The notes under the pieces are model-generated. The model ran no database searches. It had not been told where the DNA came from and saw only the letters and a program-made list of their open reading frames with translations. 64,000 bases of DNA, from NCBI GenBank assembly GCA_965198225.1, contig CBDAOY010000008.1:1-64000 (forward strand), written 5' to 3'. Source of the stretch: Terriglobia bacterium. Its GTDB lineage: Bacteria > Acidobacteriota > Terriglobia > 20CM-2-55-15. How positions within the stretch are numbered: the first letter of the stretch is position 1; every line of letters starts with the position of its first letter. Both the position numbers and the translations under genes were made by a program. This document shows, piece after piece, positions 35,599-39,693 of the stretch.

Positions 35599-36029
35599 CT
35601 AAACGCTCGTTTGCCGGAGAGCCGGCTTTGTGTGGGACCAATGGCTGTGAATGATCCTCCACTGCCCATCGACACGACGATAGACCTCCGTGGAATTCCA
35701 GCGGGCCAACAGGGATTCTTGCTGATCAGCTAGTTTTCCATAGTTGACGACGTTCGAACTCAACACCGCCACGTCACCGTGGTGCTGAACCCTAGGAGCC
35801 ATCATCTCGTACCGTGGATCCGTGAACGGGAGTTCGAGGTCCTTTATCGGACCCAACAGTGCTCTCATGGCTTCCAATCCATCCCTGCGTTCTTCCTGGT
35901 TTGGATCGAAGTAGGTCACCTCAAGTGCGTACAGGTCCAGGTAGCAGGTAGCCCTGGGGATCACCGGTGACCCAACGGTCGAGCGCGGATCGCTCCGAGG
36001 CTATGATCTCTTCGGATACACTAGCCCAT
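35599..36029 (-). pseudogene. DUF4440/SnoaL-like (YybH-type) protein, frameshifted
   Basis: 'IIASERSALDRW..GDPQGY' and 'LDLYALEVTYFDP..WNSTEVY..WRIIHSHWS' are in different frames. Confidence 0.75.
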
Positions 36030-36149
36030 CGAGTCTCCCCCTCTCCTGAACTGCATTGGTACAAGACGCTGCGAAGCCCGGGAAGAGGACAAAGGGATCC
36101 GAAAAATCGCTTCTGGATAGTATGGGTGCGGGCCCGGTACAACGTTCAG

Positions 36150-36593
36150 TCATGAGTCTTGTCGCTCCAGAAAGGTTTTCAGGCTTTCGCGGAGAAAATA
36201 GTCCCACCCCGCCTGGCCGCTTTCGCGGCTGAAATCTGGATTGTCCTGCGGAAAGGTCTCAATTCCCTTGTGAGAAAACTTCAATTTCGTACCGCTGGGC
36301 GTTTCCGACAGTTCCCATGTGACAGACGAGTTTCCGGCGTAACCTCCGTATCGCCAGTTGTAAGCAATTCTCCTTCCCGGAACCACGTCGGTCACTTTCC
36401 ACTGGTGTGGGTAGTCCCGGTCTTCGACCCGTACATTGAACTGCGTTTCGAAACCTACTTCAGGTTCGAAGTCAGTGATCGTCTCGAAGAACCACTGACG
36501 CATTTGATCCTTGTCGGTAATGGCCTTCCAAACCACAGCGATGGGAGCGTTGAATGTGTGTTCCACGACGATCGGGTCTGCATTTATGTCCAT
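36150..36593 (-). CDS. SRPBCC/AHSA1 domain protein
   Basis: 'FNAPIAVVWKAITD..M.QWFF', 'GWDYFL..LK.FLE'. Confidence 0.9.
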   Translation of the reverse strand: MDINADPIVVEHTFNAPIAVVWKAITDKDQMRQWFFETITDFEPEVGFETQFNVRVEDRDYPHQWKVTDVVPGRRIAYNWRYGGYAGNSSVTWELSETPSGTKLKFSHKGIETFPQDNPDFSRESGQAGWDYFLRESLKTFLERQDS

Positions 36594-36624
36594 GTGGTTC
36601 GTCCTGAAAGAATTGTCAACTGCA

Positions 36625-36723
36625 ATCTAACGTCGTTGCCGTTAAGCTGCGGGCGCGAAACAAGGCGGCGCAAGCGAAGCTTGCGACCGCTAAGACCAGC
36701 TATCCGCCAGCTTCAACGGCTTG
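36625..36723 (-). other. attC site (main part; R'' displaced to 38304-38310 by the IS110 insertion)
   Basis: Reconstructed 105 bp: GTCTAAC-AAGCCGTTgAAGCTGgCGG...CCGCAGCTTAACGGCaacgac-GTTAGAT, with extrahelical bases. Confidence 0.88.
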
Positions 36724-36808
36724 ATACTCATGAAGGCCCCCAAAGCTGCCCGCCAGGCGGGCAGGCTGGAAAGGTAACCAAACCGATTCCAAGAAGGGGG
36801 CTTTCTGA

Positions 36809-37855
36809 ATGCGATTCTATACCAACCAACATGAGTACTACTGCGGGATCGACCTGCATGCACGGACGATGTGGATTTGCATCCTCGACTCGACCGGAGA
36901 AGTCTTGGTCGACAAGAACGTCAGTGCCGGACCCGAGGAGTTTCTGAGAGTGATCGAACCCTATCGATCCGATGTGGCCGTTGGCGTGGAATGCATTTTC
37001 ACTTGGTATTGGCTGGCGGACCTGTGCGAGCGGGAAGAGATCCGGTTCGTGCTGGGTCACGCCCTGTACATGAAAGCGATTCACGGTGGGAAAGCCAAGA
37101 ACGACCGGATCGATGCCTACAAGATCGCTGTGCTACTGCGCGGCGGCATGTTGCCCCAGGCCTACGTGTATCCGGAACCGATGCGCGCCACGCGGGATCT
37201 GCTCCGTCGCCGGCTGTATCTGGTCCGTATCCGCGGTGAGCTGCTGACTCACATCCAGAACACGAATCACCAGTACAATCTCGGCCCGATTCCATCGAAA
37301 CTCCAATACCCATCCAATCGCGACGGATTCGTCGAACGATTCACCGATCCGAGCGTCCGGAAGAGCATGGACGCGGATCTGGAACTGATCGGTCACCTGG
37401 AACGCGTGATCCATGCGATTGAGGTCTATGTCCTCAAGCAAGCCCGCCAGCACGATCCCGGAGCCGTTCATCTGTTGCGGTCCATCCCGGGTATCGGCAA
37501 GATCCTGGCGCTGACGATTCTCTATGAGATTCAGAACATCGACCGATTCGAACGCGTTCAGGATTTCGTCTCCTACTCCCGGCTAGTGAAGTGTGCCAAG
37601 GAGTCGGCCGGCAAGAGAATCAGCTCCAGTTCCGGCAAGAAGATCGGTAACGTCCATTTGAAGTGGGCGTTCTCTGAAGCTGCCGTTCTGTTCCTGCGGC
37701 AGAATCCCGATGGCCAGAAATTCTTGGCTCGGCTCAGCCGCAAGCACGGCAAACCGAAAGCATTGAGCATTCTCGCTCACAAGATCGGCCGCATCACCTA
37801 TCACCTGATGCGGAGGAGGACGAACTTCGACATGCGAAAGTTTCTTGCGGCTTGA
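36809..37855 (+). CDS. IS110-family DEDD recombinase/transposase
   Basis: 'GIDLH', 'VGVEC', 'KNDRIDA', 'SIPGIGK', 'KESAGK', 'GNVHLKWAFSEAA'. Confidence 0.95.
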   Translation: MRFYTNQHEYYCGIDLHARTMWICILDSTGEVLVDKNVSAGPEEFLRVIEPYRSDVAVGVECIFTWYWLADLCEREEIRFVLGHALYMKAIHGGKAKNDRIDAYKIAVLLRGGMLPQAYVYPEPMRATRDLLRRRLYLVRIRGELLTHIQNTNHQYNLGPIPSKLQYPSNRDGFVERFTDPSVRKSMDADLELIGHLERVIHAIEVYVLKQARQHDPGAVHLLRSIPGIGKILALTILYEIQNIDRFERVQDFVSYSRLVKCAKESAGKRISSSSGKKIGNVHLKWAFSEAAVLFLRQNPDGQKFLARLSRKHGKPKALSILAHKIGRITYHLMRRRTNFDMRKFLAA

Positions 37856-38280
37856 CGGAAGGGAGCGGGAGAACCCTTTGCCTAACTGGCGTCGCTACGG
37901 TCTCATCCTCCATCGAGAATCATCATGCGTGCGGCACCGACCGCGATCACCGATTCTCATGGACCTTAGACCAGACAGCCATCTCGCTTGATTGGTTCCC
38001 GCTCCCGTTCCGACCCGACTGGTGCTCTGCCCCTCACCCGAGCCTGGAGCTAACTGGCGGCACACGCCGACACTTGAGTAGGACGGTACGAGGGTACTGA
38101 TGAATTTCTAGGTCGCGGTTCGATCCTGAACCGCAGTGCTGAGTCTTGACAGCGCTTGAACCTCAATAGGTGTTTGGTGCAGCGCATCTCGGCTGCACCG
38201 GCAATCGAATCCAAGTCGGAGCACGTCTCTCAACTTCGAATTGGCTCACTGTCGTGAGCCATGAGGATTGGTGTCGCTCT
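37856..38280 (+). ncRNA. Putative bridge/seek RNA region of the IS110 element
   Basis: No convincing ORF; hairpins at 38115-38134, 38176-38199, 38242-38261; short matches to target and donor junctions. RNA boundaries not determinable here. Confidence 0.6.
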
Positions 38281-38316
38281 TGACTCTACGGGGCCTTATA
38301 GGTGTTAGACAGCTCA

Positions 38317-38688
38317 TTAAGTGACGTGCGGCAGCGGTTCCAACTCTTCTAGGGCCGCCTTGGCTGATCGCATGGCATGCCAGAGATCCCAGTCTTGCTG
38401 TAATCCGAGCCAAAAGTCGGCACTCATCCCTGTGACGCGAGCCAACCGCAGCGCTGTGTCCGGGGTGACTGATCTCTTGCCTCGAATGATCTCATTCAGA
38501 CGGGGAAACGATACGCCCAGACGAATGGCAAAGGCCGACTGCGACACACCGAGCGGCTTTAGAAACTCCTCAAGGAGCATTTCGCCCGGATGCGTCGGAG
38601 GTTCATGGGTGGGCAGCGGGCGTGCCACCAGCGGCTTTTTCTTTGATCGGCGTTTAATGGTAGTCGGTGACTTCGACTTTGTCGGCAT
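38317..38688 (-). CDS. higA: HigA-family antitoxin (HTH)
   Basis: 'PTHPGEMLLEEFLKPLG', 'TPDTALRLA', 'FWLGLQ..WDL'. Confidence 0.92.
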   Translation of the reverse strand: MPTKSKSPTTIKRRSKKKPLVARPLPTHEPPTHPGEMLLEEFLKPLGVSQSAFAIRLGVSFPRLNEIIRGKRSVTPDTALRLARVTGMSADFWLGLQQDWDLWHAMRSAKAALEELEPLPHVT

Positions 38689-38947
38689 AGCCGTTCTCCC
38701 AAGAAAAACACACCCGGTACTGTTCATTGATCCGAATGCTATATTGGCCTGCTCTGTCGCCCACCAGTCGTTCCAAACGGTTGCCCGGCGGCACCGCCAA
38801 CTCGTGAAGATCTCGTACGCGGTTGAGTTGGGTCAGCTTTCGACGGGCTACGGGCCACAGCTCAATCAGACAGGTTCGCCGAGCTCGCCGGCTTTTGACA
38901 CCGTTGAAGATGTCCGTGGTGGCCTGATCGGCGAACGTCCGTATCAC
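38654..38947 (-). CDS. higB: HigB-family (RelE/ParE) toxin
   Basis: 'PPGNRLERLVGDRAGQYSIRINEQYRVCF', C-terminal DYH. Confidence 0.92.
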   Translation of the reverse strand: MIRTFADQATTDIFNGVKSRRARRTCLIELWPVARRKLTQLNRVRDLHELAVPPGNRLERLVGDRAGQYSIRINEQYRVCFSWENGYADKVEVTDYH

Positions 38948-38998
38948 GGACTCTATTATAACGGACTACGTAATAGTGTCCAGGGGCCGTCGTTGGCT

Positions 38999-39051
38999 GT
39001 CTAACGGTTTGTGGCTCTGTGGCCGCCGTCTGGTGCAGCCACTTGTTATAA
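38999..39051 (-). other. attC site (short, central part eroded)
   Basis: Minus strand TTATAAC-AAGTGGCTgCACCAG...GAGCCACaaacc-GTTAGAC. Confidence 0.75.
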
Positions 39052-39063
39052 CCGCTGTTCAGG

Positions 39064-39369
39064 TTAGCTGGCCTGCACGCACTTGATACGTCCGAGTTCT
39101 GCCGCCTCCGCTGCCTGCGCGTGATAGAGATCCCAACGGAGTTGGAGGTTCATCCACAAATCGGCGGTAGTCCCAAAGAACTTCGCCAGTCGAAGGGCCG
39201 TGCTTGGGGTGATCCCACGTCGACCGTTCACCAGTTCATTAATGCGTTGATACGGAACACGGATGCCATCAGCCAACTGGCGCTGGCTGAGGCCCATCGG
39301 ATTCAGGAATTCTTCTAAGAGCATCTCGCCAGGGTGAGTAGGCTGACGATGCGTTGGGATTCGGACCAT
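39064..39369 (-). CDS. higA: HigA-family antitoxin
   Basis: 'PTHPGEMLLEEFL', 'GITPSTALRLAKFFG'. Confidence 0.92.
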   Translation of the reverse strand: MVRIPTHRQPTHPGEMLLEEFLNPMGLSQRQLADGIRVPYQRINELVNGRRGITPSTALRLAKFFGTTADLWMNLQLRWDLYHAQAAEAAELGRIKCVQAS

Positions 39370-39399
39370 TGAAGCCTCCGATTCAGTTGCGACCCTTGC

Positions 39400-39693
39400 T
39401 CAGTGGTAGTCGACAATCTCCACATTCTCCGGACCAAGCTCCGTCCACACGAAGCAGACGCGATACTGATCGTTCACGCGCATGCTGGGCTGCCCAGCCC
39501 GATCCTTCTTCAGGGCTTCCAGTTGGTTGCCAGGCGGTGCCCGCAGGTCTCGTAGCGTGCTGGCCGAATCGAGCAGCTCCAGCTTACGCCTCGCGGCCTT
39601 CCGAACGGTTGCCGGGCAGACCTGACGGGCCCGCTTAGTTTCCGATCCATTGAAAATATCTTCCGTGCCACCGTCGCGAAACGAATGAATCAC
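39400..39693 (-). CDS. higB: HigB-family toxin
   Basis: 'PPGNQLEALKKDRAGQ.S.RVNDQYRVCF', C-terminal DYH. Confidence 0.9.
   Translation of the reverse strand: MIHSFRDGGTEDIFNGSETKRARQVCPATVRKAARRKLELLDSASTLRDLRAPPGNQLEALKKDRAGQPSMRVNDQYRVCFVWTELGPENVEIVDYH

Follow-up and report, generated by a model that had tools for sequence, protein, structure and literature searches.

Recombinases directed by bridge or seek RNAs are under intense study for genome editing. Solved structures came from a single structure-bank sequence search with the transposase described below, and these are of IS621 and ISCro4. In IS621, as described in PMC11208160 and PMC11208158, one RNA of 177 nt is encoded in the left end, upstream of the gene. 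Its two simple internal loops form a target and a donor module, each of which reads both strands around a 2-nt core, with the left guide 5' of the right guide and with extra 2-nt 'handshake' positions that match partner DNA. For the IS1111 branch, the accounts in PMC11187229, PMC11208160 and PMC13604230 report only short seekRNAs and predicted structures. IS1111 elements carry sub-terminal inverted repeats of 7-17 bp according to Durrant et al. (PMC11208160), or usually 11-13 bp according to Siddiquee et al. (PMC11187229), and have short asymmetric terminal extensions. The IS1111-attC elements ISKpn4, ISPst6 and ISPa25 are described as having a DEDD transposase, a long non-coding region downstream of tnp and sub-terminal inverted repeats, with one end of an integron attC site as their target (PMC11187229).

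The window, a stretch of 64,000 nucleotides, holds an element that shares all of these features. An IS1111-type insertion sequence (IS) lies inside an integron attC site, and positions 37856-38304 form its conserved 3' non-coding end. The element is made up of the following parts:

36724-38304, + strand: the IS1111-type IS, with ends from the G020 copy and flank divergence
36724-36808, + strand: left end of the IS, 85 nt, from the G020 copy, flank divergence, the left-end logo (59 loci) and the junction consensus
36809-37855, + strand: DEDD transposase of the IS110/IS1111 family (bridge recombinase), 348 aa, from Pfam, NCBIfam and the IS621 alignment
37856-38304, + strand: 3' non-coding end of the IS, 449 nt
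38225-38304, + strand: variable spacer and IS right end, from the alignment and the right-end logo of 65 loci

By its sequence, the element is of the RNA-guided DEDD transposase type of the IS110/IS1111 family. The transposase matches the Pfam models DEDD_Tnp_IS110 (PF01548, 5e-16) and Transposase_20 (PF02371, 2e-18) and scores 194 bits against NCBIfam NF033542, for which the cut-off is 140. When aligned to the IS621 transposase (8wt6), it keeps the GID motif, the E in V(E)C, DxxD and the ES serine motif. The boundaries were set with the help of genome G020, which carries a 100% identical copy at a different attC site, and a truncated copy on contig C6 agrees with the same ends. Because of these two copies, the GTTAG target, the left flank ..CGGCTTG and the right end ATAGGTG are confirmed. 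The left end begins with ATACTCAT and has its sub-terminal inverted repeat, AAGGCCCC, at 36733-40. The right end contains TTGACT (38280-85), a conserved -35-like hexamer, then GGGGCCTT (38290-97) as its sub-terminal repeat and ATAGGTG (38298-304) at the terminus. The sub-terminal repeats that mark the IS1111 group are therefore present, although with the ends as set here AAGGCCCC and GGGGCCTT match over 8 bp, below the usual 11-13 bp, with terminal extensions of 9 and 7 nt. The GGCCT.ATA and.AGGCC blocks of the IS ends are conserved. The layout of the non-coding ends, 449 nt on the right against 85 nt on the left, is that of the IS1111 group as well, and across 64 homologues the right non-coding end measures 385-627 nt.

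The interrupted site can be read on both sides of the element:

36625-36723, + strand: left part of the interrupted attC, with partner R box ATCTAAC (36627-33), inverted L arms and left target ..CGGCTTG (36717-23)
38305-38311, + strand: right target TTAGAC(A), which completes the attC R box, from the sequence and the G020 copy

On the cassette strand the right target reads GTCTAAC and lies 6 nt past the stop of a HigA-like gene, and the TG at 36722-23, which recurs at the right junction, is core-like. The original prediction, made from the sequence of the window, had pictured a hairpin-forming target, and the site is indeed attC-like: the rebuilt empty attC forms an R''/R'-paired hairpin of 105 nt (-49.9 kcal/mol), and the empty sites of the window and of G020 both fold as attC hairpins. 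For the family, the left-flank logo is GCTGCAnnnnnTTG (57 loci) and the right-flank logo TTRRRY, the whole target logo being GCTGCAnnnnnTTG|TTAGGC. At 31 of 43 loci a convergent open frame stops at most 45 nt from the IS end (2-10 per control bin), and an integron integrase is encoded in the same genome on another contig. The pattern GCTGCANNNNNTTGTTRRRY has one match in the window where 0.72 are expected, which is uninformative. Insertion into an integron attC in one orientation is what characterizes the IS1111-attC group, and the family amounts to a second lineage of RNA-guided elements that disrupt gene-cassette recombination sites, here inside the R box itself. Such an insertion would be expected to prevent cassettes from being excised there.

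One scan of species-representative genomes confirmed 445 relatives from many phyla. Among 79 homologous loci, with protein identity of only 60-70%, nhmmer detected the 3' end in 77, again from many phyla, and 38 of these 3' ends align nearly full length; Vibrio and Alteromonas plasmid relatives also carry it. A search of plasmid DNA with the 3' end as query gave three partial matches, all from Candidatus Manganitrophus. At one locus with a transposase (L043), the 3' end was missed by both the nhmmer and the covariance-model searches. An unrelated IS110 element, the P. aeruginosa plasmid match H19 (33% identity), was used as negative control; its 3' end is unrelated and its site lies outside an integron context. 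The homologous ends were collected in a 64-row alignment that left out 14 loci with no detectable right end (mostly cut contigs), which served as held-out tests instead. Also excluded were L034, in which the right-end pattern matched only 211 nt past the stop codon (too short), L050, whose end is identical to that of L048, and, from A1, L016, which is the same IS as L015.

It is most likely that the 3' non-coding end encodes an unusually long guide (bridge or seek) RNA with two domains:

37857-38011, + strand: domain 1 (D1), seekRNA-like and putatively target-binding, from covariation, RNAalifold and model R1
38022-38224, + strand: domain 2 (D2), putatively donor-binding, from helix covariation

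A multi-domain guide RNA of the recombinase had been proposed in the original prediction, and it finds its counterpart in a conserved, covarying structure of about 370 nt (37857-38224). The minimum free energy (MFE) fold of the flagged region has -184.6 kcal/mol (z -2.62), and 1 of 100 shuffles folds as well. D1 is closed by helix P1, 15 bp between 37857-71 and 37996-38011, which encloses an internal loop and the hairpin P1b (37931-34 with 37941-44). In P1, 86% of cells are paired and double changes occur in 15 of 15 pairs, against 0.47-0.53 for slid controls, and in P1b all 4 pairs show double changes. RNAalifold finds compensatory changes in 13 of 14 pairs of D1. A covariance model, which the original prediction had named as a check, was built for this domain (R1) and matched 14 of 15 held-out homologues, at 1e-10 to 1e-25. 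In D2, the closing helix P2 (38022-28 with 38218-24) is 81% paired with double changes in 6 of 7 pairs. Arm P3 (38031-45 with 38080-94) is made of P3a, P3b and P3c, which are 98-100% paired and have double changes in 2/5, 1/3 and 3/3 pairs. P4 joins 38105-08 to 38207-10 and 38110-12 to 38161-63; double changes are seen in 2 of 3 pairs of P4b and 4 of 8 pairs of P5, and in none of P4a. Slid controls are lower for 7 of 9 helices. P3a does not drop when slid (0.83-0.95 at +1 to +3 vs 1.00), and P4a drops moderately (0.83 at -1 vs 0.98).

Three hairpins that had been pointed out in this region are present both in the sequence and in the MFE fold. Their arms are GCGGTTC/GAACCGC (38115-38134), GGTGCAGC/GCTGCACC (38176-38199) and GGCTCAC/GTGAGCC (38242-38261). 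The first two belong to D2, and the third is specific to the window, within a non-conserved stretch. An Rfam search by E-value of 36000-39500 gave no match.

Conservation of this kind could also be explained at the level of DNA, by recombinase-binding sites together with an internal pseudo-end and with no functional RNA. CTTGAAC..ATAGGTGTT does mimic the right end CTTGAC..ATAGGTG|TT, so much that the right-end pattern first matched the internal block. However, five helices spread over 370 nt carry compensatory base-pair changes, the hallmark of a folded single strand, no copy has a second IS boundary at 38172, and the family is annotated, and described from experiments, as RNA-guided (NF033542; PMC11187229). 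A purely DNA-level explanation is thus very improbable. The probability that the open frame 37852-38100 (82 codons), which is present in the window, encodes a small protein is negligible: indels ignore the frame (distances from the start of the non-coding region to TTGATT, taken modulo 3, are spread 23/20/14), the longest stretch free of stops varies from 27 to 86 codons, and variation tracks base pairing, not codons. We consider it probable that the DEDD recombinase is guided by a single long bridge (seek) RNA, about 370 nt in length (37857-38224) and with two helically closed domains.

Two segments that face each other in the loop of D1 relate to the target:

37880-37891, + strand: motif 1, GCCUAAC-UGGCG, candidate right-target guide on the 5' strand of the D1 loop
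37984-37990, + strand: left-target guide UCGCUUG, in the same sense as the left flank and opposite motif 1

A first scan for segments that track the left flank picked out 37984-37990 (18 vs 4.8). The identity of this segment to its own left flank at positions -4 to -7 is 0.45-0.55, against 0.28-0.35 with other loci, and the mean run beyond TTG is 1.27 for the own flank vs 0.48. Neither own-flank value is reached in any of 10000 permutations (n=55), so the guide covaries with the left flank, even though mismatches begin at position -4 in 28 of the 55 loci. After UCGCUUG comes AU (37991-92), which equals the first two bases of the IS left end and resembles a handshake guide. Motif 1, for its part, complements the target R box G|TTAGRC on the top strand, as had been noticed for its CTAAC and the conserved GTTAG. 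CTAAC is exact in 53 of 64 loci, and the reverse complement of the motif agrees with G plus the right flank at 0.91, 0.98, 0.98, 0.65, 0.67, 0.46 and 0.58 per position. Beyond this consensus, motif 1 shows no locus-specific covariation with the individual right flank (1409/5000 permutations). Since the motif recurs in D2, it could have a structural or protein-binding function and not be a guide. With GCCUAAC antisense to GTTAGRC, UCGCUUG sense to the left flank and an overlap at the G, the arrangement is that of IS1111 seekRNAs.

The original prediction had placed the left-target guide elsewhere:

38151-38158, + strand: AGCGCTTG, not a guide; forms the 3' arm of a local hairpin (38135-40 with 38152-57) where the multiloop is variable

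Its sequence is there, but the role assigned to it fails. Identity to the own flank is 3.43 of 9 against 3.41 for others, 2446 of 5000 permutations doing equally well, and conservation is poor (0.12-0.59 per column, except the last G at 0.91). The covariation between guide and target that had been suggested thus exists for the left flank, through the segment 37984-37990 that had gone unlisted, and is absent for AGCGCTTG and for both CTAAC motifs.

D2 contains the segments that relate to the ends of the IS itself, and a second loop:

38166-38174, + strand: putative left-donor guide AUAGGUG, then UU, single-stranded between P4b and the hairpin 38176-99
38050-38059, + strand: motif 2, CUAACUGGCG, on the 5' strand of the loop that tips arm P3
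38075-38080, + strand: UGAGUA, a weak right-donor guide candidate, on the 3' strand of the motif 2 loop

ATAGGTG occurs at 38166-38172 and again at 38298-38304, as originally noted: AUAGGUG equals the last 7 nt of the IS, and the UU after it the first two bases of the right flank. In the 64 ends the block is 0.97-1.00 conserved except for one variable base, and this base agrees with the right end in 55 of 59 loci (30 G/G, 25 A/A, 4 discordant). Rare states agree too, with C/C in L021 and T/T in L095 and L096. Counted over independent pairs, in an underpowered test, there are 3 changes in the same direction, 0 opposite and 2 unchanged (p 0.25). The proposal that ATAGGTG at 38166-72 acts as a donor (right-end) guide is in this way favoured by suggestive evidence. 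On the other side, UGAGUA is the exact reverse complement of bases 2-7 of the IS left end (TACTCA, 36725-30). It is perfect (6/6) in 8 of 29 loci with ATACTCAT, and a G at the partner position occurs in 6 of 10 elements with ATCCTCAT vs 2 of 29. There is no covariation at left-end position 6, and a search for a long complement of the IS left end found nothing consistent.

This bears on the question of whether D2 is part of the guide at all. It might be that only D1 (about 150 nt, 37857-38011) guides, that D2 is a separate conserved 3'-UTR element, for example a scaffold for processing, stability or recombinase loading, and that the protein reads the ends through the sub-terminal inverted repeats. 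Protein reading of these repeats has already been proposed for IS1111 elements, whose characterised seekRNAs are described with 82-172 nt and target matches only (PMC11187229, PMC13604230). Both target matches sit in D1, the right-donor guide of D2 is weak, and the donor-guide test is underpowered. Against this, the 9-nt AUAGGUGUU is the best-conserved single-stranded block of D2, its sole variable base tracks the right end through G, A, C and T, the D2 loop is paralogous to the target loop, and Durrant et al. (PMC11208160) describe donor-binding bases in multiloops of IS1111 bridge RNAs. We consider a guide confined to D1 unlikely.

The second loop goes back to a repeat which had drawn attention to the region, with the caution that such short matches could be chance. 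The CTAACTGGCG repeat is at 37882-37891 and 38050-38059. Taken alone it is mildly unusual, in that a repeated 10-mer of some kind turns up in 1446 of 20000 mononucleotide shuffles of 37856-38290, and to this extent the caution was in place. In the 64 homologous ends, both CTAACTGG copies are nevertheless real features, conserved in the family and each on the 5' side of a loop, and the motif 2 loop is a paralogue of the D1 loop. Of 64 loci, 62 have AAC at motif 2 and 33 the exact CTAAC, and the motif shows no covariation with individual right flanks (4087/5000 permutations). Motif 2 also appeared to track the IS left end (17/5000), but both partners lie inside the IS and relatedness explains the signal. 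Between the 3' strand of loop 2 and the left flank, a relation (299/10000, with 4 loci missed) was set aside as too weak after several tests.

The original prediction had these two CTAAC modules read both R boxes of a folded attC, with AGCGCTTG as left-target guide. Two conserved, paralogous CTAAC loops do exist, the target is a hairpin-forming attC whose R boxes are mutually complementary, and the weak relation just mentioned would fit. Yet AGCGCTTG is neither related to the flank nor conserved, motif 2 lacks covariation with the right flank, and the sequence adjoining the partner box in the window has no TTG, which loop 2 would need. A strict partner R box lies within 150 nt in only 18 of 51 loci, by a search too strict to judge attC status family-wide. 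In this form the two-module idea is quite improbable. A doubtful though conceivable reading gives the RNA three DNA-reading sites, in which the second CUAACUGG loop would reread the R box and AU and UU would be mirrored handshake guides. Loop 2 might then read the right junction (IS end plus TTAG) together with AUAGGUG-UU, or the partner R box of the folded attC. If this were true, the strand exchanged first would be opposite to that in IS621, the bridge recombinase would be adapted to a structured, palindromic recombination site, and control of insertion vs excision would be built in at the very box used by the integron integrase.

With the single two-domain RNA that we prefer, recombination can be pictured as follows. 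The D1 loop would bind the target: GCCUAAC (37880-86), its 5' strand, is able to pair with the attC R box G|TTAGRC on the top strand, and UCGCUUG (37984-90), its 3' strand, would pair with the left flank ..CGGCTTG on the bottom strand. The two matches overlap at the G of the TG 'core', the presumed site of DNA exchange. D2 would handle the excised circle, whose joined ends are the donor. There AUAGGUG (38166-72), single-stranded in the multiloop, would pair with the bottom strand of the right end and UGAGUA (38075-80) may do so with the left end's top strand, and the AU and UU after the sense guides would match partner DNA in the manner of mirrored handshake guides. The transposase transcript would supply the RNA as its 3' portion, and a promoter created by joining the right end (TTGACT) to the left end would drive it. 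The distance from the end of TTGACn to the IS end is 19 nt in 52 of 58 loci and 18 nt in the other 6, and in the circle junction consensus G+ATACT spans the joined ends. It is possible, judging from these motifs, that the left end holds the -10 of a junction promoter once the element is circular. No circle junction was present among the metatranscriptome contig joints. Two low-depth metatranscriptome contigs cover 38066-38222 and 38133-38308, for which DNA carry-over is possible, and in X19 and X20 the transposase gene is without cover, although missing cover proves nothing.

The guide RNA of this family is twice the usual length and strongly constrained, and its left-target and left-donor guides can be read from natural variation, which offers concrete testable positions for how IS1111-type RNAs hold donor DNA. 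No characterised seekRNA or bridge RNA reaches half the conserved length, so some of the conserved stretch may serve a different function.

How far, then, does the locus conform to the known systems? With IS621 it shares a recombinase of the same fold and catalytic motifs and, in the proposed mechanism, one RNA with target and donor modules that would each read both strands around a 2-nt core and would have additional 2-nt handshake positions. It differs in that the RNA lies in the right end, the guide order is reversed and the donor guide would sit in a multiloop, and so this is not a bridge RNA of the IS621 type. The core is TG here and CT in IS621, and the handshake-like bases here trail the sense (bottom-strand) guides, whereas those of IS621 are described as trailing the antisense ones (PMC11208160, PMC11208158). 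The predicted bridge RNAs of ISPa11, ISAzs32 and ISCARN28 are likewise placed in the right end, with donor nucleotides in a multiloop and not in a simple internal loop (PMC11208160); compared by description, a duplicated loop complementary to the R box goes unmentioned for them in that account. In the literature searched on IS1111 seekRNAs and IS110 bridge RNAs, we found no description of a long two-domain attC-targeting bridge RNA; the type of system is known and its long RNA version is not described. Two plasmid searches had no Klebsiella records, where ISKpn4-like copies might be expected, among the matches listed or in the organism tallies. As in the IS1111 seekRNAs, the match to the top strand lies 5' of the one to the bottom strand and the two overlap at the insertion point (PMC11187229), and the left target given for ISKpn4, CGGCTTG..., is the same heptamer as in the window (PMC13604230). 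The point of insertion is a different one, since ISKpn4 and ISPst6 insert at TTGAA*CG, 11 nt before GTTAG (PMC13604230), and the present element at TTG*TTAG, inside the R box. Compared by description, the RNAs of the ISKpn4 group have 82-86 nt, with long forms of 148-151 (PMC11187229), against about 370 nt and a second domain here.

Of the 449-nt right non-coding end of an IS1111-type insertion sequence, the stretch at 37856-38290 makes up 435 nt; the left non-coding end is only 85 nt long. No Rfam family was found for it. It is preceded by the transposase gene:

36809-37855, + strand: transposase ORF, 348 aa, directly 5' of the stretch

This protein has the Pfam domains DEDD_Tnp_IS110 and Transposase_20, both typical of IS110-family transposases, and scores 194 bits against a cut-off of 140 with the NCBI model 'IS110 family RNA-guided transposase'. 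Its alignment to the solved IS621 transposase preserves the ES serine motif as well as the acidic catalytic residues. In G020, a genome from a different genus in the same family, there is a 100 % identical copy whose identity covers 36719-38308 and nothing outside; in the window's own genome (G000), contig C6 carries a truncated copy that shares 37826-38304 and diverges after it. From these two copies and the homologue alignments, the element runs from 36724 (ATACTCAT...) to 38304 (...CCTTATAGGTG). Both junctions carry TG, as expected for a 2-nt core. The G020 copy (1590 bp, C3:12518-15969, L083) lies at an attC other than the window's and suggests either that the element spread horizontally very recently or that the DNA is mis-binned or shared. 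The C6 copy (L002 1-1985, C6:275353-277337) comprises the last 479 nt with one base different and abuts an IS256-like gene (Transposase_mut-like by reading, L002 13-1185); its missing 5' part occurs nowhere else in G000, and its right flank starts ATAGGTGGCTC, a repeat of the IS terminal heptamer. On a further contig, 98 nt (C9:216306-216403, L003) are 76 % identical to the IS left end (36710-36808), with no transposase match reported there, and could be either a relic or a left end related to this one.

When the empty sites of the window and G020 were rebuilt, both folded into attC hairpins of the classical type, their R boxes paired (105 nt, -49.9 kcal/mol and 91 nt, -54.2 kcal/mol, respectively). 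Across homologues the flank logo reads GCTGCAnnnnnTTG | TTAGGC (57 left and 60 right loci), and the element therefore sits within a GTTRRRY-type box. A strict complementary partner box at most 150 nt away was present in only 18 of 51 loci; on the logo and the two fully analysed sites, the site family can be termed 'attC-like'. A convergent ORF of at least 60 codons stops no more than 45 nt from the right end in 31 of 43 loci, against 2-10 loci per control bin (nine bins), and the left ends of the same loci show no such enrichment. Insertion is therefore placed in the gene-proximal R box (RYYYAAC) in cassette orientation, where the transposase gene runs antisense to the cassettes. The neighbouring features are:

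flanking the element in the window, - strand: AHSA1-like gene and HigB/HigA pair
38654-38947 with 38317-38727, - strand: HigB-like toxin and HTH antitoxin pair
39064-39369 with frame 39400-39693, - strand: HigB-like toxin and HTH antitoxin pair

An attC-like site at about 38990-39060 (GTCTAAC ... GTTATAA) separates the two toxin/antitoxin pairs, and the content of 38317-39693 is typical of a cassette array. G000 does have an integron integrase above the curated cut-off (C6:488798-489706, L090, 446 bits), though it contains one in-frame TGA and lies on a different contig; none lies within the 64-kb window. The same search placed a tyrosine-recombinase gene at seven or more sites on contigs C6, C7 and C9, each scoring 115.7 bits; this is presumably a further repeated mobile element.

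A single scan across species-representative genomes yielded 445 confirmed transposase relatives, and the best 79 of these (60-70 % identity), from MAGs labelled Acidobacteriota, Gemmatimonadota, Nitrospirota, Planctomycetota, Deltaproteobacteria, Chloroflexi and others, were compared. With the window's 452-nt end as query, nhmmer placed the right end directly 3' of the gene in 77 of the 79, near full length in 38, and missed it in L043 and in the cut contig L059; the left end was recovered in just 2 loci. A profile built from 65 ends could be aligned from end to end with elements carried by plasmids of Vibrio campbellii and Alteromonas macleodii (~53 % protein identity) and not with an unrelated IS110-family element on a P. 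aeruginosa plasmid. The Vibrio relative (L095, NC_022271.1 19389-23423) sits immediately downstream of another, distinct IS110-family transposase gene (L095 68-1084). Second full or partial 3'-end copies within a few kb (L015 1232-1754 and 3551-4073; L008 5361-5532 and 5573-5744; L041 1109-1187; L009 26-202) could represent either tandem insertions into adjacent sites or orphaned right-end fragments. An 82-codon frame at 37852-38100 was ruled out as a gene because indels among homologues ignore reading frame (23/20/14).

Averaged pair probabilities and pair counts from a 64-row alignment give two closed domains, D1 (37857-38011) and D2 (38022-38224):

37857-37871 with 37996-38011, + strand: P1 of D1; 15 bp, 86 % of cells paired, double changes at 15/15 pairs, slid controls 0.47-0.53
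37931-37934 with 37941-37944, + strand: inner hairpin of D1; double changes at 4/4 pairs
38022-38028 with 38218-38224, + strand: P2 of D2; double changes at 6/7 pairs
38031-38045 with 38080-38094, + strand: arm P3 of D2; 98-100 % paired, double changes 2/5, 1/3 and 3/3
38105-38108 with 38207-38210 and 38110-38112 with 38161-38163, + strand: P4 of D2, from pair counts
38115-38134 and 38176-38199, + strand: hairpins of D2, from the 64-row alignment

The first P3 segment, P3a, rests on its double changes because its slid controls come close (0.83-0.95 at +1 to +3), and the first part of P4 is invariant and scores 0.83 under a slide of -1. For D1 a separate alignment, made with MAFFT, was given to RNAalifold, which predicted 14 pairs, 13 with compensatory changes. 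The original prediction proposed a covariance model and conserved structure as checks, and both came out in its favour: besides the double changes in the helices, the D1 model found the correct place in 14 of 15 homologous loci outside its alignment (E 8e-10 to 7e-25), missing L043. It also matched both other copies of the window's element and the two plasmid relatives (E 1e-5 and 4e-3) and gave no match to the P. aeruginosa plasmid element, the negative control; searched across G000, it returned the two known copies only.

Both copies of CTAACTGG (37882-37891 in D1, 38050-38059 in D2) are family features, so that the duplication noticed at the outset holds, as does the complementarity of CTAAC to the target R box. 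Each copy occupies the 5' strand of a loop opposite a strand nnnnUUG-A.U.GG (37984-37995 in D1, 38069-38082 in D2), and for this reason the two loops look like paralogues. The reverse complement of motif 1 matches G plus right flank at 0.91, 0.98, 0.98, 0.65, 0.67, 0.46 and 0.58 per position, a match to the conserved R box that carries nothing specific to the locus (1409 of 5000 permutations do equally well). For motif 2 the agreement extends to GTT and around half of the two positions that follow, and this motif does not covary with the right flank; a second target-binding module in the D2 loop is a possibility rather than a result.

The left-target guide first placed at 38151-38158 is not conserved and matches no better than chance (3.43 vs 3.41 identities of 9; 2446 of 5000 permutations). 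An unbiased scan for 6-mers common to each end and its own flanks led to 37985-37989 (18 loci vs 4.8 with permuted flanks). Over 55 loci, the four bases just 5' of the conserved UUG are identical to the left flank of their own element at 0.45-0.55 per position; with the flanks of other elements the figure is 0.28-0.35. Three or more additional matches in a row are seen in 13 of 55 loci and in ~5 % of non-self pairs; the observed mean was reached by 0 of 10,000 permutations. The left-target guide lies 160 nt upstream of the segment originally chosen, and the expected guide/target covariation appears at 37984-37990 and in neither CTAAC motif beyond the R-box consensus. The match is imperfect, with position -4 mismatched in 28 of 55 loci, which fits an element hopping among the varied attC sites of an array. 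The window's guide, UCGCUUG, has five bases matching its own flank and six matching that of G020.

For the donor side, CCUC.AUA[R]GUGUUUGG is the best-conserved single-stranded block of D2. Its variable base and the one in the terminal ATA[R]GTG agree in 55 of 59 loci (30 G/G, 25 A/A, 4 discordant), which upholds the proposed ATAGGTG match, and rare states are C/C in L021 but C/A in L011, and T/T in the two plasmid relatives. Mapped on a transposase tree, the internal base has undergone 12 or more changes and the terminal base 10 or more, but supported branches yield only five independent pairs (three the same way, none opposite, two unchanged; median p 0.25), leaving the covariation consistent but statistically unsettled. 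At terminal position -2, T (48), G (15) and A (2) all occur, while the internal counterpart stays U. A weaker reading is that UGAGUA (38075-38080), which is perfectly reverse-complementary to left-end bases 2-7, may be a right-donor guide; among elements with ATCCTCAT the partner position is G in 6/10 cases vs 2/29, largely in one clade, and left-end position 6 shows no covariation. Each sense guide is followed by two bases equal to the first two of the partner DNA across the junction (UUG-AU, left end AT; GUG-UU, right flank TT), family-wide constants that count as a single observation. They recall the handshake guides of IS621 (PMC11208158; PMC13626964), here on the opposite guide type. A conserved TTGACn ends 19 nt before the right terminus in 52 of 58 loci and in a circle would face G+ATACT at 18-nt spacing, resembling the junction promoter described for ISEc11 (PMC11187229).

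Among the matches listed, the element occurs at near-identity in 15 sequencing runs from five studies. Two DNA-type runs show it at several times the depth of its flanks and with several different flanks, which indicates multiple copies there. Two sponge-metagenome RNA libraries, in which DNA is possible, each gave one low-depth contig (38066-38222 and 38133-38308, the latter running on into a different flank beginning GCCGCTGCACC) and no cover of the transposase gene, only a hint of expression of the right end. Runs X1 and X6 each hold one contig with a variant 3' end, in which 143 nt (38121-38265), the hairpins and donor-guide region, are replaced by 141 other letters, a sign of a related element whose middle part differs.

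The observation is confirmed and its interpretation was partly right: with target-complementary CTAAC and donor-matching ATAGGTG, the stretch probably encodes a multi-domain guide RNA, and its left-target guide had been misplaced. IS1111-group elements are known to carry a guide RNA in the right end, and their seekRNAs, 82-96 nt with long forms of 148-172 nt, co-purify with the transposase and have a top-strand match 5' of the bottom-strand match, the two overlapping in the target (PMC11187229; PMC13604230). Bridge RNAs were predicted in 93 % of IS1111 elements, with donor-binding bases in multiloops (Durrant et al., PMC11208160); the present RNA has both traits. Our search of the seekRNA, IS1111, attC and bridge RNA literature found no description of such a long two-domain RNA. 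ISKpn4, ISPst6 and ISPa25 are IS1111 elements able to target attC (PMC11187229; PMC13604230), and their listed target, CGGCTTGAA*CGAATTGTTAG, has its left heptamer in common with the window; their insertion point lies 11 nt before GTTAG, whereas the present family inserts at TTG*TTAG (PMC13604230). What appears to be new is a conserved RNA of ~370 nt, a second domain with a paralogous CUAACUGG loop and an insertion point inside the R box.
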